From assembly GCA_016840065.1 (NCBI GenBank), contig JAEOTB010000108.1, positions 1 through 14,073 on the forward strand: a DNA stretch of 14,073 nucleotides, written 5' to 3'. Under the pieces are notes generated by a model. It was given only the letters and a program-made list of their open reading frames with translations, searched no databases and was not told where the DNA came from. Position numbers and translations under genes: made by a program. Below, piece after piece: positions 565 to 14,073 of this stretch (position 1 is its first letter; each line of letters begins with the position of its first letter). Source of the stretch: Candidatus Hermodarchaeota archaeon. GTDB taxonomy: Archaea; Asgardarchaeota; Hermodarchaeia; Hermodarchaeales; Hermodarchaeaceae.

Positions 565-1803
565 TTGTTGTCTCGTCTTCTTGATGTTCGGGTGACTTCG
601 GTTTTCACCTTTCTGTTTTTGGCGGTAAGTGTTTGGTGTGTTTCGGCTCCGGTCCCCAGGGTTGTTGATGGGCTTCCACCGTACTGGCCCACTGAGGACT
701 GGTTGTACTCGACGCCGGAGATGCAGGGCGTGAATCCGAGCCGGTTGTCGGAAATGATGGCAGATATCGAGGCGAACGATTTTGCTATCGACTCGGTTGT
801 GATTGTGCGGAATGGCTACATCATTTTGGAGGAGTACCCGAATCCTGCCTATTTGGCTGACTCACTTCACATCATCTATTCTGCGACTAAGAGTGTGACC
901 TCCCTACTCTTCGGTATTGCTATGCAGCAGGGATACATAACCGACACGTCTCTAAGTGTGGTCGACTTCTTCCCTGACTTTACGATTGCGAATATGGACA
1001 CACGGAAGGAGAGTATGACCCTATGGCATTTGCTGACCATGAGCACCGGCTTCGACTGGGATGAATGGGGTGCTCCCTATGATGATCCGATAAACAATGA
1101 TATGGCTGCCATGGTTGGGAGTCCGGATCCGGTACAGTATGTCTTGGACCGCCCCATGGCCTATGATCCAGGTGAGGTCTGGGCGTATTGTGGTGGGGCA
1201 ACAACACTCCTAGGGGAGATAATTGAACGTGCTACAGGTACCCCCTTTGATACATATGCCAGAGAGCAGCTCTTTGAGCCCCTCGGTATTGATTTGTTCG
1301 TCTGGGGTAATTTTCCGGGCGGCTACGCCAACACCGCTGGGGGACTCTTTTTGCGCCCTGTGGATATGGCTCGCCTTGGACTCCTGATGCTCTGCGAGGG
1401 AATCTGGGACTCAGAGGCGTTGTTAACAGCGGGTTATTTTGCCGAAGCCATTGACGCCTACTATCACGTCAACAACTATGATGGCATCTTCGAAGGCATC
1501 ACCTACCGGTATGGTTACCAGTTCTGGAGTAACCCCGAGCAAGGTGTACACTACTGCTGGGGTATGAACGATCAAAAGATCATATTCGTTCCAGAATATG
1601 ATTTGGTCATCGCCTTTACGGCTGACCCTACCGCAGGTGCCTTTGTGACAGATTATCTCTTATGGCAATACATTCTTCCCGCAATGGATGAACCCTTCTT
1701 CAACCTGGGTGCTCTGCTTCTTCCTAGCCTTGTCGTCTTTGCAGTAGCGGTGCCTGTTGGCATCCTTGGAGTTTATTGGTTCAGAAAACGGAGACACGAA
1801 TAA
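565..1803 (+). CDS. Membrane-anchored serine hydrolase, beta-lactamase class C / 6-aminohexanoate-dimer hydrolase-like family
   Basis: SxxK catalytic motif (YSATKS), HLLTMSTG, PG-x2-W-x-Y, LFEPLGI and GGL-x-LRPVDMARLG family motifs; hydrophobic N-terminal signal; C-terminal TM helix with basic tail (WFRKRRHE). Confidence 0.92.
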   Translation: MLSRLLDVRVTSVFTFLFLAVSVWCVSAPVPRVVDGLPPYWPTEDWLYSTPEMQGVNPSRLSEMMADIEANDFAIDSVVIVRNGYIILEEYPNPAYLADSLHIIYSATKSVTSLLFGIAMQQGYITDTSLSVVDFFPDFTIANMDTRKESMTLWHLLTMSTGFDWDEWGAPYDDPINNDMAAMVGSPDPVQYVLDRPMAYDPGEVWAYCGGATTLLGEIIERATGTPFDTYAREQLFEPLGIDLFVWGNFPGGYANTAGGLFLRPVDMARLGLLMLCEGIWDSEALLTAGYFAEAIDAYYHVNNYDGIFEGITYRYGYQFWSNPEQGVHYCWGMNDQKIIFVPEYDLVIAFTADPTAGAFVTDYLLWQYILPAMDEPFFNLGALLLPSLVVFAVAVPVGILGVYWFRKRRHE

Positions 1804-3668: not shown

Positions 3669-4931
3669 TTGAGTGGAGATGCTACTTTGTCAGTACCTGG
3701 TAGTATTCGAGAAACTGCCGCATTCACTCTTCTCTTATTGGCGTTGTGTTCATGGTGGGCTTCGCCTCCGGCAGTTGTTCATTGTATCCCTTCTTATTGG
3801 CCAACCGTGGAATGGCAATATACGACACCAGAGTTACAGGGAGTTGACTCCAATCATCTTCAGGAGATGCTGGATTTGGTTGAGGTCATGGAGTGGGCTG
3901 TTGATTCGGTGATGGTGATTCGGCATGGCTATGTTGTGCTTGAGGAGTATCTGTCCACCTACACTGAGAACTCGTTGCATACTCTTCAGTCGGTGACCAA
4001 GAGCATCGCCTCAATCCTGGTGGGCATGGCCATTAATCAGGGCTACATTACTGATGTGTCTGAGCGGGTCGTGGACTTCTTCCCGGACCTGACTATCGCG
4101 AACATGGATGAACGAAAAGAGCAGCTTACGCTTGAGCATTTACTCACCATGACCACGGGCTTTGAGTGGGATGAGTGGACCTACGGTTACGATGACCCCG
4201 CGAATAATAACTTGGCAGCGATGCATGCCAGCCCAGATGCGGTTCAGTATGTTCTTGACCGCCCGATGGCGTTTGAGCCTGGGCGTGTGTGGGTTTATTG
4301 TTCAGGGGCGTCCGTTCTTCTAGGAGAGATTGTTGAACGAGCCACGGGCCAAGACCTGAACGCCTTTGCGCGTGCGAACTTGTTTGATCCTCTCGGTATC
4401 GGTATGGTGATGTGGTACCGGGCGCCGGGGGGCTACTACCATACGGGCGGCGGGTTGTACATGCGATCCCGTGACATGGCCCGCATCGGCTACCTGATGC
4501 TCAATAATGGCACATGGGAGGATTCTCAGACTGTTCTTTCATCTGAGTACGCGGCTACCTCCACCGCCAACCTCGTCCGACTCCCTAACACTTTTGATTA
4601 CGGTTACGGGTTTCAATGGTGGTACCTGATAGATTATGACATCTACTATGCGAATGGTCATTATGACCAGAAGATATTCGTAGACCCTAGCCGGGACCTC
4701 GTTGCGGTCTTTACCTGTTCTATCGCTGATGGTGACTACTACCCCGCGAACTACCTATTCCTAAACTATATTCTTCCCGCAATTGATGAATACACACCAA
4801 CCTCCAATCCCCCCACCTCACCCCTTCCACTCGTTTTCGCCGTAGCCGCTGTCGTCACAGTTATAGCCGTAACCGGATTCTTCTGGCTCAGAAGAAGAGG
4901 AGCACCCACCTCAAATGGAAGCTCGAAATAA
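3669..4931 (+). CDS. Membrane-anchored serine hydrolase, beta-lactamase class C-like family; paralog of 565-1803
   Basis: SxxK (QSVTKS), HLLTMTTGFEWDEW, VQYVLDRPMA, LFDPLGI, GGGL-x-MRSRDMARIG; signal peptide; Pro/Thr linker, C-terminal TM and RRR. Confidence 0.92.
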   Translation: MSGDATLSVPGSIRETAAFTLLLLALCSWWASPPAVVHCIPSYWPTVEWQYTTPELQGVDSNHLQEMLDLVEVMEWAVDSVMVIRHGYVVLEEYLSTYTENSLHTLQSVTKSIASILVGMAINQGYITDVSERVVDFFPDLTIANMDERKEQLTLEHLLTMTTGFEWDEWTYGYDDPANNNLAAMHASPDAVQYVLDRPMAFEPGRVWVYCSGASVLLGEIVERATGQDLNAFARANLFDPLGIGMVMWYRAPGGYYHTGGGLYMRSRDMARIGYLMLNNGTWEDSQTVLSSEYAATSTANLVRLPNTFDYGYGFQWWYLIDYDIYYANGHYDQKIFVDPSRDLVAVFTCSIADGDYYPANYLFLNYILPAIDEYTPTSNPPTSPLPLVFAVAAVVTVIAVTGFFWLRRRGAPTSNGSSK

Positions 4932-5423: not shown

Positions 5424-6524
5424 TCAGTCCCGTTTTAGGGATTTCCGATGCTGCTCCTCTTGTCGCTTCGCGAAGTCCTCCCAGCTTTCGCCTGGACGCC
5501 GTTTGTACATAAAATCATCATCTTCCGACACGGGTTCAGCAGCTTCTTTGGGCTCTTCTTTGGGTTTTCCTTCAAGGGTGTTCAGTGCATCTCGAATCAG
5601 TTTTTGAATGCGTTTATCTTTTTCCCGTTCTAGGGCTTCTCTGAGTGGCTCGACGGCCTGTTTATCTCCGATTTCTTCTAGGGCAACGACCGCGCAAAAC
5701 CGCGCCTTCGCTGAGTCGTCCTTAAGGACTTCGATTAGAGGTTCGATAGCTTCGGATCCTATCACTGTTAGAGTGAAAGCGGACGCCATTCTGACAGTTT
5801 CAGTTTTATGTTTCAAGGCTGGGATGAGGGGTTCAATGGCGGCTGGTCCCACCTTAGCCAGTGCTGAGGAGAGCCGCTCCAGTATTTCCTCATCCTTTTC
5901 CTTTGCAAAAGTCTGGAGGAAAGGCTCAATTAGTACTATCCCGAACTTGGCGAGTAGTGTCGCGGCACCTTCCCACTCCTGAGTGTGAGATGATGTCCGG
6001 ATGACCTGGATCAGGGGGTCGATGGCGGCTTCGTCCATCTTGGTCAAGCCTTTCAGGGCAGCTTGCCGGAGGGCTTCTTCGGGGTCCCGATAGGCGACGC
6101 TGATGAGCGGTCCTACGGCTCGTGGATCCTGCATTCGTGACAGGTTTGTGATAGCCCATGCCCGAATAGCGGGGTGATTGTGGCGGAGAGACCGGATTAG
6201 GGGCTCTACACCGTCTTTCCCAATCATCACCAAAGCCTGGATCGCTGCTGCGCCCACACTTTCGTCATTGAGGGTCAAGAGTTCGAGGAGGGGTTCAACT
6301 GCGACGGCGCCCATCTGCCCCAGGGCGTTGATGATGATATCCTCATCTGTGCTGTTCTGGCTATTGAACAGGGCGTGGATGAGATGAGGGACGGACTCGG
6401 CTCCGTATTTCTGGAGGACCTGTATCGCCTTCTTCCGCTTATCTTCCCGCTCATGTTTCAGGAGTTGTATGTATTTGGCAATCTTTCGGGCGTGTTTTGA
6501 TTCAGGAGGCATTGACAACGGCAA
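5424..6524 (-). CDS. HEAT-repeat (PBS-lyase HEAT-like) alpha-solenoid protein
   Basis: Many repeats of ALxxIG-x2-A(V/I)EPLIxxL (ALGQMGAVAVEPLLELL, ALAKVGPAAIEPLIPAL, ALEEIGDKQAVEPLREAL); charged C-terminal tail. Confidence 0.92.
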   Translation of the reverse strand: MPLSMPPESKHARKIAKYIQLLKHEREDKRKKAIQVLQKYGAESVPHLIHALFNSQNSTDEDIIINALGQMGAVAVEPLLELLTLNDESVGAAAIQALVMIGKDGVEPLIRSLRHNHPAIRAWAITNLSRMQDPRAVGPLISVAYRDPEEALRQAALKGLTKMDEAAIDPLIQVIRTSSHTQEWEGAATLLAKFGIVLIEPFLQTFAKEKDEEILERLSSALAKVGPAAIEPLIPALKHKTETVRMASAFTLTVIGSEAIEPLIEVLKDDSAKARFCAVVALEEIGDKQAVEPLREALEREKDKRIQKLIRDALNTLEGKPKEEPKEAAEPVSEDDDFMYKRRPGESWEDFAKRQEEQHRKSLKRD

Positions 6525-6637: not shown

Positions 6638-8062
6638 TTGACAACTCAACAAGGAAATCCATCAGATATTGAAGGTTGGCCGATGCTAAGGCGAGACGCC
6701 GCCGCCTCGGGGACTGATGGGTCCCAGGTGCATCCACCGCTGGAAAAGGTGTGGGAATTCCGGGCTCGTGGGGACATTGAATCCTCTCCAGCCCTAGCGT
6801 ATGGTCTGGTCTTCTTCGGCAGCAAGGACAAACACGTTTATGCCGTCGATGGCAGTACTGGAGAGAGCCGGTGGACCTTCAAAACCGGGAAAGCCGTCAT
6901 AACCACTCCCGTGGTCGCTGATGGAGTGGTGTATGCGGCGAGTGAGGATAAACACATCTATGCCCTGGATGCACAAACGGGTGACAAACACTGGCTATTC
7001 TCACCGGGTAAGGAAATCTCCGTGACCCCCGCGGTAGGTGAAGGTTTGGTCTTTTTCGGCTGCAAGGATAAACAGGTCTACGCTCTTGACGTTAAGACCG
7101 GGCAGCCTCGATGGACGTTCACCACTGAATACAAGGATCATTCGCCCCCCGTCATTATTCAAGGTAAAGTATTGATTACTGGTCGGAAAGGCACCAAAGG
7201 CACGCTTTTTGCCATTGATGCGGCAACGGGGGAATTGGTATGGAAAGAGGATGACCGTCTAGGGATTCCCCATCCAGTTGCTGCATCGAACACTGTTTTG
7301 TCCCGTTCCTCGGACCACCAGCTGTATGCCACAGACCTGCAAACTGGGGCTTCGAAAGGTAGGCTTATCCCTGACAGGCTTTACCATGCCATATTCAGTC
7401 ACAACTACCTCTACGTCTCCTTAATGGGACCCTTTGCCTTGAATGGCTTTGACCTCAGCCACCATGTTTCTGACGGCTGGGATTTGGGATTCATGCCATG
7501 GCCAGGGGTACCCAGCGTACCAGCGGTGAGCGGTGATTACGCCTTTGTTACGGGGCAGAACGCAAACACCTTATACGGTTTCCGAATCTCTAAATTCACT
7601 AAGCGCTGGCAGCACCAATTCAAAGAAATTCTGAAAATGCCTACGGGGGCACCTGTGATAGCCGATGGAAGGCTGTTTGTAGTGAGTGAAAAGGGAAAAA
7701 TCCACGCCTTCAAAGGTACAAACGATCCAAAGTTCACACAACGAATGGAACTTATCCTCGGAACCATCAATAAGGAACCCACATTCAAAGCACGCCTTAT
7801 ACAGAGAACTACCAGATGGCCCAACTGCTGTTGCTTGTGCCTGGACCCCGCTGAGACGCATTTCACCCTCTGAAGTGCCGAGGGCCAAGTCACTCTTGAA
7901 ATATCAGGAGTACCCTACTGCAACGCCTGCAAGCAAAAGGTTACTAAGACGTTCGGTGGAGAGAAACCTGGTGTAGTAATCGACCGAGAGTCGGTACGAA
8001 CCCTTGTTTTCAGAAACGAGAAGTATTGGGCCATGTTCATGGAAGCCAATCACTTACGATAG
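6638..8062 (+). CDS. PQQ-like/BamB-type beta-propeller repeat protein with C-terminal Zn-ribbon-like domain; in-frame TGA at 7871-7873
   Basis: Repeats SPAL/TPVV...VYA(V/L)D-x2-TG-x3-W-x-F. After the TGA the frame continues 62 codons (SAEGQVTLEISGVPYCNACKQKV...LVFRNEKYWAMFMEANHLR, TAG at 8060-8062), supplying the second CxxC to pair with CCLC before the TGA. The ORF track ends at 7873. Confidence 0.85.
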
Positions 8063-12852: not shown

Positions 12853-14073
12853 TTAGACGCGTTCTTTGACAAGCTTGTCCACAACAGCTGGGTCAGCGAG
12901 CGTGGTGGTGTCGCCAAGCTTGTCCAATTCACCAGCAGCTATGCGCTTCAGAATACGGCGCATAATCTTGCCGCTACGAGTCTTGGGCAGGGCATCAGCG
13001 AACTGGACCTTGTCGGGGGTTGCGATGGGCCCGATTTCCTTCCGCACATGCTTACGAAGCTCCTGACGGAGTTCCTCAGTCTTGTCGATGCCATGTTTCA
13101 AGGTCACAAAGCAGTAGAGTGCCTGTCCCTTGATGTCATGCGGAAAACCGACAACCGCAGCTTCAGCAACTGAATCATGAGAAACAAGTGCCGACTCGAT
13201 CTCTGCGGTGCCCATACGGTGGCCAGAAACGTTGACGACATCGTCAATCCTGCCGACGACCCAGAAGTAGCCGTCCTTGTCTTGGCGAGCGCCGTCGCCA
13301 GTCATGTAGTAGGGTGGGAAGGTCTTGAAGTAGGTGTCAATAAAGCGTTGGTGGTCACCGAACACAGTGCGCATCAGACCAGGCCACGGCTTCGTAATGA
13401 CGAGGTAGCCGCCTTCGTTCCTGCCGACTTCCTGTCCGGTTTCATCGACGATCATAGCCTCAATACCTAGGAATGGAAGAGTACAGGAACCAGGTTTGAG
13501 CGGGACTGCACCGGGGATTGGGGTAATGACGACGCCGCCAGTTTCCGTCTGCCAATATGTTAGTCGCCAGTTAGGCTATTGCCTAGCTGGAATCGACAAT
13601 AGGGCAGCGGCTTTGTCCAACGACTTCGTAATACCAGAGCCACGCTTCAGGGTTGATTGGTTCACCGACGGTTCCGAGGAGTTTGAGGCTGGAGAGGTCG
13701 CGTTTTCTTACCCATTCGTCACCGTGGCGCATGATGGCTCGGATGGCGGTGGGTGCGGTGTAGAACTGGTTAATCTTCCATTTTTCTACTACTGCCCAGA
13801 AGCGGTCGGGTTCGGGGTAGGTGGGTACGCCTTCGAACATGACGCTGGTTGCGCCTGCGGCTAGGGGTCCGTAGACGATGTAAGAATGACCGGTGATCCA
13901 TCCTATGTCGGCGGTGCACCAGTAGATGTCTTCTTCTTGGTAGTCGAAGATATATTTGAACGTTGTCGCCGTGTAGACCATGTAGCCGGCGGTGGTGTGC
14001 AGCACACCCTTGGGCTTGCCCGTGGAACCGGACGTGTACAGGATGAACAGCGGGTCTTCCGCATCCAACCACA
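12853..14073 (-). CDS. acs: Acetyl-CoA synthetase (AMP-forming acetate-CoA ligase), 5'-partial; spliced as 14073..13592 joined to 13560..12853
   Basis: [38 protein letters not shown]|[30 protein letters not shown] and [11 protein letters not shown] motifs. The two track ORFs (13583-14068 and 12853-13455) join into one frame once 31 nt are removed. Confidence 0.96.
13561..13591 (-). other. Candidate 31-nt bulge-helix-bulge (BHB) intron in acs mRNA
   Basis: Insert TCCAGCTAGGCAATAGCCTAACTGGCGACTA. Central 4-bp helix GUCG/CGAC, two 3-nt bulges AU^U and UA^A, inner stem CCAG/CUGG plus UAGGC/GCCUA. Excision restores GAT-ACA (Asp-Thr). Confidence 0.88.

Follow-up and report, generated by a model that had tools for sequence, protein, structure and literature searches.

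The acetate-CoA ligase gene (acs) on the minus strand of the window, the 14,073-nucleotide stretch of DNA analysed here, is split by a 31-nt insert (13591..13561), which is very probably a bulge-helix-bulge (BHB) intron spliced from the messenger RNA by the endonuclease EndA and the ligase RtcB. The coding sequence is otherwise intact: both halves match AMP-binding families in profile searches, and no second lesion was seen in the flanks. Read on the minus strand, the gene runs ...CGC TGC CCT ATT GTC GAT, then the insert, then ACA TAT TGG CAG ACG GAA ACT GGC GGC, and the insert (13561-13591) carries an in-frame TAG (UAG) and shifts the frame. In the proposed mechanism, GUCG of exon 1 would pair with CGAC at the 3' end of the intron to form a 4-bp central helix, next to which would lie a 3-nt bulge on either strand, the intron hairpin and exon-exon pairing. 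A heterotetrameric (αβ)2 EndA would cut each bulge between nucleotides 2 and 3, whereupon RtcB would ligate the exons and probably circularise the intron. The joined message, reading across ...ATTGTCGAT-ACATATTGG..., would encode a full-length acetate-CoA ligase. We infer the cleavage, the ligation and the identity of the responsible enzymes from the sequence. Splicing of this message by the tRNA machinery had been claimed in a sequence-only reading of the window, whose coordinates and insert details proved correct when the minus strand was read again; the splice register, conservation in four gene copies, selection on the exons and the presence of EndA and RtcB all argue for it.

The features of the window, the related inserts and the intron-bearing gene copies are collected in Table 1. 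The part of exon 1 that lies in the window matches PF00501 (AMP-binding) at profile positions 159-316. The remaining genes of the window, which are ordinary and unrelated to the intron, encode two serine beta-lactamase-family proteins, a HEAT-repeat protein and a PQQ-like beta-propeller protein. No Rfam family matched in positions 13300-13850, and ARAGORN found no tRNA across the window. A repeated or mobile element was considered and rejected: within the bin, the intron 31-mer has a single match even when up to 3 mismatches are allowed.

Table 1. Positions of the interrupted acs gene, its predicted splicing elements and comparable inserts (window coordinates unless a contig is named).
Feature	Position	Strand	Description
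acs exon 1, partial	13592..14073	minus	Gene leaves the contig at its end; 160 codons read from 14071, last residues ...SRCPIVD
Candidate 31-nt BHB-type intron	13561..13591	minus	Third nt of 5' bulge, inner hairpin, CGAC, then UA of 3' bulge
Intron inner hairpin	within 13561..13591	minus	CCAG/CUGG and UAGGC/GCCUA, loop AAUA
acs exon 2	12853..13560	minus	235 codons (12856-13560) from TYWQTETGG; stop codon 12853-12855
Central helix (4 bp), 5' strand GUCG in exon 1	13594..13597	minus	Partner CGAC at 13563-13566
5' bulge A-U-U, 3 nt	13591..13593	minus	Predicted EndA cut 13592/13591
3' bulge U-A-A	13560..13562	minus	Predicted cut 13561/13560; adjoining U-C mismatch 13598/13559 makes this the relaxed side
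Exon-exon outer pairing, 5' strand	13598..13610	minus	UAU 13599-13601, CUGCC 13603-13607, CCG 13608-13610
Exon-exon outer pairing, 3' strand	13545..13559	minus	AUA 13556-13558, GGCAG 13549-13553, CGG 13545-13547; GGCAG and CGG paired in MFE
Other coding regions of the window	565-1803, 3669-4931, 6638-7873	plus	
Other coding region of the window	5424-6524	minus	
Intron-bearing acs copy	C113 (window contig)		31 nt
Intron-bearing acs copy, same bin	G000:C105:254-284 (locus L118)	minus	31 nt, several positions different from the window intron; inner pair A-U replaced by U-A; loop CAAAACU
Intron-bearing acs copy	G003		31 nt, third version, longer apical stem
Intron-bearing acs copy	G001		30 nt, clearly different sequence, 9-bp hairpin, whole BHB shifted +1 nt
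EF-1α insert	C10:75524-75552 (loci L115, L117)	minus	29 nt, BHB-shaped; predicted cuts rebuild FKFAYVMDRLKEERE
EF-1α insert	C10:75365-75395 (loci L115, L117)	minus	31 nt, perfect hBHBh' with CAAG/CUUG; predicted cuts rebuild DFIKNMITGASQAD
moxR (AAA_3 ATPase) insert	C10:39546-39571 (locus L120)	plus	26 nt, BHB-shaped; predicted cuts rebuild LLEGVPGIAKT
acs insert of family f9	loci L123-L127; genomes G209, G143, G137, G281, G215		Between ...TACTGGCAAA and ACAGAAAC

The 86-nt RNA folds with a minimum free energy (MFE) of -28.9 kcal/mol, compared with -20.8 +/- 3.3 kcal/mol for shuffled sequences (z = -2.46). Most of the fold drawn in the sequence-only reading is present in the MFE structure, which contains the outer helices CCG/CGG and CUGCC/GGCAG, the central helix GUCG/CGAC, the 3-nt bulge AUU, the inner stems CCAG/CUGG and UAGGC/GCCUA, and the AAUA loop. 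The UAU/AUA pairs that the same reading had placed beside the 3' bulge are possible but lie outside the MFE structure, which has an internal loop at this position. Because these pairs are missing from it, the 3' splice site is, as modelled, a relaxed bulge and the BHB slightly relaxed overall; its surroundings consist of a U-C mismatch and just three A-U pairs instead of a clean 3-nt bulge. The predicted structure combines, in relaxed form, the elements that define an archaeal BHB, namely two 3-nt bulges on opposite strands, a 4-bp helix between them and flanking helices.

For cbf5 introns, EndA has been stated to cut between bulge nucleotides 2 and 3 (PMC2738675). The cuts predicted by this rule in the window (AU^U and UA^A) give ...GUC GAU-ACA UAU... 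and rebuild the Asp-Thr (D-T) pair. The splice register was examined by sliding both cut sites together and counting the pairs in the central, inner and outer helices of each copy. In the window, the register that yields GAU-ACA has 4 of 4 central, 4 of 4 inner (plus five further) and 3 of 4 outer pairs, and the other registers are poor. A shift by one base in either direction was correctly calculated in the sequence-only reading to produce E-T or D-S, and the D-T register alone pairs well. Shuffled window inserts reached the observed geometry in 8 of 20000 cases, the corresponding range for all four copies being 6-18 of 20000.

The acs gene was searched for in 40 relatives and its junctions were then read. 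All four copies of this ortholog found in the genus, located on four contigs of three genomes, are interrupted at the D-T site. The alignment by which the sequence-only reading had proposed to judge its intron returned four different inserts, each capable of forming a BHB. In each of the three 31-nt introns, the register yielding GAU-ACA is the only one with 4, 4 and 3 pairs. The 30-nt intron of G001 is in frame and contains both UAG and UAA; its sole BHB register (3/4, 4/4 and 3/4 pairs) lies one base downstream and gives GAUA/CC, that is Asp-Thr, whereas naive in-frame removal would give Asp-Ser. Cuts between bulge nucleotides 2 and 3 are therefore predicted to produce the correct mature sequence in the window and in the three other copies. 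When the copies are aligned by structure, pairs of the inner stems are exchanged (C-G with A-U, A-U with U-A, and G-C with A-U), and G001 remakes the motif one base over. On a four-sequence MAFFT alignment, which has little statistical power and in which G001 is out of register, the covariation is weak: it amounts to one two-sided pair change, and 96 of 500 shuffles reach this score. The outer exon-exon helices are invariant among the copies and hence uninformative about the structure.

These comparisons also bear on recoding, in which the ribosome would skip the insert by translational bypass of the phage T4 gene 60 type or read through it in another way. A stop codon near the take-off site and a stable hairpin are features of gene 60-type bypass, and the acs insert has a stable hairpin and a stop codon soon after the Asp codon. 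However, the take-off codon GAU has no matching landing codon, since CUA precedes ACA and the only GAC of the insert precedes UAA, and the G001 insert, with its 30 nt in frame, its UAG and UAA and its one-base shift, is consistent with cutting of the RNA but not with a hop. Were the insert read through, 10 foreign residues would interrupt an invariant motif. Recoding is accordingly a highly improbable explanation, and a BHB intron accounts for the register in all four copies.

The second copy in the same bin (C105) overlaps that of the window (C113) by 759 nt at 87% DNA identity, with a near-identical middle and flanks that are about 80% identical. This pattern suggests either paralogs subject to gene conversion or two co-binned populations. 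The bin also holds two full-scoring copies of the central domain of the PolD large subunit (DP2), at G000:C36:12102-13292 and G000:C93:892-2085; as a hint from these duplicates, the bin may mix two related populations, beyond its contamination estimate of 5%. In G003, about 1 kb downstream of acs, a short segment (G003:C133:2039-2167, locus L005) with one TGA corresponds to the C-terminal 43 residues of Acs at 86% identity; it may be the remnant of a tandem duplicate.

In an exon-2 tree, the three intron-bearing copies with a full exon 2 cluster together, albeit weakly (83/26), and a single gain of the intron in the genus appears likely from these sequences. The apical-hairpin sequence common to G001 and the other copies likewise suggests a single origin. 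In the sister genus, 13 acs orthologs were found among 15 genomes, all of them single 656-aa frames, and no intron at the D-T site was found outside the genus in a sample of 301 Asgard genomes. Among metagenomic relatives, a protein-guided scan of 80 loci, all at most 71% identical, revealed the intron in none of the 78 readable ones; a pattern scan of metagenome contigs for C-P-I-V-D followed by 25-55 nt and WQTET gave 0 hits, and the exact 3'-junction pattern was found across genome contigs only in the G003 contig. A protein search with the 70-aa joined junction peptide, built from the window exons, returned no uninterrupted or spliced form from this genus; its best matches were 654-aa Acs proteins with 90% identity, which are probably intronless orthologs of the sister genus.

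A further acs insert occurs in some genomes of another Asgard family (f9). It is about 30 nt long, contains stop codons and interrupts WQ/TETGG, 13 nt downstream of the D-T site. It shares with the window intron the gene, the protein motif, the approximate length and the hairpin shape, but it lies 13 nt further on, between ...TGGCAAA and ACAGAAAC, and the D-T pair is uninterrupted there. Since the site differs and D-T is intact, the f9 insert represents an independent gain.

Both exons of acs are under strong purifying selection. Among the intron-bearing copies, pairwise dN/dS ranges from 0.065 to 0.108 in exon 1 and from 0.025 to 0.048 in exon 2, while dS lies between 0.4 and 2.6. In the AcsA equivalog model TIGR02188, exon 1 covers positions 2-394 and window exon 2 positions 395-628, so nothing has been lost or added at the junction. 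The exon 1 match was obtained with the C105 copy, in which this exon is complete; in the window, exon 1 is represented by its last 160 codons. The two halves score 620.8 and 378.4 bits, about 999 in total, and the cut-off of 724.95 is exceeded by the sum but by neither half.

These data weigh against a pseudogene, in which the insert would be disabling and the gene decaying or dispensable. Such a reading takes the in-frame UAG and the frame shift at face value and could draw on a distant uninterrupted acs paralog in the bin (C104, 44% identity, 650-aa frame), the presence of which means that the intron-bearing acs need not be essential. Yet dN/dS is only 0.025-0.11 in both exons at dS values up to 2.6 in four interrupted copies, no further lesion has accumulated, and a precise BHB is kept while the sequence of the insert varies. 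Moreover, EF-1α, normally indispensable, has two such inserts in the same bin. Decay of the gene is therefore very unlikely, and even less credence can be given to a split Acs with the two halves made as separate polypeptides. A 200-aa open reading frame with an ATG start does lie inside exon 2 (12853-13455), but a protein starting there would lack 35 residues from the beginning of exon 2, among them TYWQTETGG, and these residues are conserved under purifying selection. The break also disrupts a core motif instead of coinciding with a domain hinge, and the TIGR02188 matches abut exactly at 394/395. A continuous protein made from a spliced message remains the preferred reading.

That the insert is genomic, a point which the sequence-only reading had wanted checked, was confirmed with a public marine-sediment run that had been assembled independently: a Logan contig of 596 nt spans positions 13210-13805 with 0 differences. 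No contig skipping the insert was found in that run, where depth was low (3.7). The public runs listed for this DNA number three, all of them DNA runs on marine sediment from a single study, and no RNA run was among them. One might suspect an assembly or sequencing artefact from the metagenome-assembled source, the position of the gene at a contig end and this depth of 3.7, but differing inserts at one site in four contigs from three genomes, together with the identical Logan contig, make it the least probable of the explanations considered.

The window is one contig of a 2.59-Mb bin (131 contigs, 83.9% complete, 5% contamination, GC 47%). The sequence-only reading had called the host probably Asgard-like and expected tRNA-splicing machinery in it, and on both points the bin agrees. 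The same-genus genome G003 is the MAG 'H02S_Hermod_124', one of the Hermodarchaeota bins, which represents a separate genus (PMC8163825); Hermodarchaeota are placed in the Asgard kingdom by NCBI. The bin encodes two EndA paralogs with PF01974 hits at C85:17046 and C10:100418. In fused EndA models, the former (185 aa) corresponds to the catalytic half and the latter (201 aa) to the N-terminal half; the latter also gives a weak hit to the beta-subunit model. RtcB is encoded at C10:52982-54292, and the host thus possesses both a splicing endonuclease and an RNA ligase. Asgard EndA is reported to be an (αβ)2 enzyme with an L1 loop linked to a broad substrate range that includes relaxed BHB motifs (PMC5829648), and the alpha- and beta-type pair of the bin, as judged from its sequences, fits such an enzyme.

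The intron could instead leave the message through another structure-specific nuclease and ligase, or by some other route not involving EndA and RtcB. The relaxed 3' site is compatible with this idea, which we nonetheless consider improbable: the EndA-specific rule, which requires two bulges 4 bp apart, yields the correct junction for the four copies of acs, for both introns of tuf and for that of moxR, and EndA alpha, EndA beta and RtcB are all encoded. To our knowledge, no other archaeal system removes hairpins of about 30 nt at such sites. EndA and RtcB are thus the favoured enzymes. In the tRNA gene set of the bin, ARAGORN recognized only 18 genes, 10 of them with introns, which is typical of heavily interrupted sets; multiple or non-canonical introns probably keep most of its tRNA genes from being recognized.

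Other protein genes of the bin are interrupted in the same manner. The only bin locus scoring as EF-1α (tuf), on the minus strand of C10, consists of three pieces that match TIGR00483 at positions 4-59, 58-102 and 101-426, separated by the two inserts of Table 1. The moxR insert is located just before the Walker A motif, and exon 2 of this gene begins at position 6 of the AAA_3 profile. The cbf5 gene of the bin is uninterrupted, being a single open 349-aa frame that matches TIGR00425 at positions 5-322 without stops. A genome-wide scan for a BHB combined with fusion of open reading frames was very noisy (3216, then 563 candidates); after a strict filter, only acs (twice) and moxR remained. The scan missed the EF-1α introns, as exon 2 of this gene has only about 45 codons, and they were found by a family search. 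One candidate, in PolD DP2 on C36, was a false positive with a continuous true frame.

Taken together, it is reasonably likely that mRNA splicing by tRNA enzymes is routine in this Asgard lineage and obligatory for at least three unrelated genes, including the only bin locus that scores as EF-1α, and that introns are still being gained, given that the acs intron is restricted to a single genus and that a second one in f9 lies 13 nt away. If so, mRNA introns spliced by proteins would be spreading as a population in those archaea that are most closely related to eukaryotes, and acs expression could be controlled at this step. If they are spliced, the conserved and selected acs intron and those of EF-1α and moxR would make tRNA-type mRNA splicing a part of normal Asgard gene expression. 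The presence or absence of the acs intron at the genus level provides a dated example of intron gain. Gene callers will label such genes as pseudogenes or fragments, with the result that functional enzymes may be absent from metabolic reconstructions of these uncultured archaea; one of them is acs, from which acetate metabolism is inferred.

Short introns are also removed from messages in eukaryotes: HAC1/XBP1 mRNA is cut by IRE1 and joined by the tRNA ligase Trl1 in yeast and by RtcB in metazoans. The acs intron resembles them as a short mRNA intron that would be removed without a spliceosome by an endonuclease acting at stem-loops, and metazoan XBP1 is joined by the same ligase family, RtcB. 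However, the nuclease and the motif are different, and HAC1/XBP1 splicing is a stress-regulated switch, whereas there is no sign of regulation for the acs intron. This unconventional splicing is mentioned briefly in one article (PMC13149111).

Closer parallels are offered by archaeal tRNA introns, which are abundant in Asgard genomes with canonical or relaxed BHB motifs (PMC11291895; bioRxiv 10.64898/2026.10.13.758758; PMC5829648). The inserts described here share with them the motif, the size class (here about 26-31 nt) and the presumed enzymes, and, as in tRNA introns at position 37/38, the 5' exon pairs with the 3' end of the intron. In contrast to tRNA introns, the host RNA is a messenger, and the predicted junction has to keep the frame and rebuilds an invariant protein motif.

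As of 2009, splicing of archaeal pre-mRNA had been confirmed for cbf5 only (PMC2738675). No report of a later BHB intron inside an archaeal coding sequence was found in the literature searched, and, for Asgard archaea, full-text searches turned up introns of tRNAs but no report of a BHB intron in a protein gene; the remark in the sequence-only reading that none was known in acs holds for this literature. The acs intron is similar to the cbf5 introns of Crenarchaeota (Desulfurococcales and Sulfolobales; PMC2738675) in being short, intra-coding and bounded by a relaxed exon-intron BHB, in its predicted cuts between bulge nucleotides 2 and 3, in a host with a hetero-oligomeric EndA, and in its patchy presence between related lineages. 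Splicing of cbf5 is backed by cDNA and enzyme evidence, whereas that of acs is predicted from sequence. It lies in acs of a Hermodarchaeota-type Asgard archaeon and not at the catalytic Asp codon that marks the cbf5 introns. The presumed mechanism is shared with tRNA introns and with the crenarchaeal cbf5 intron, but the gene and the lineage are new, and in contrast to cbf5, several unrelated genes of one bin (acs, tuf and moxR) are interrupted.
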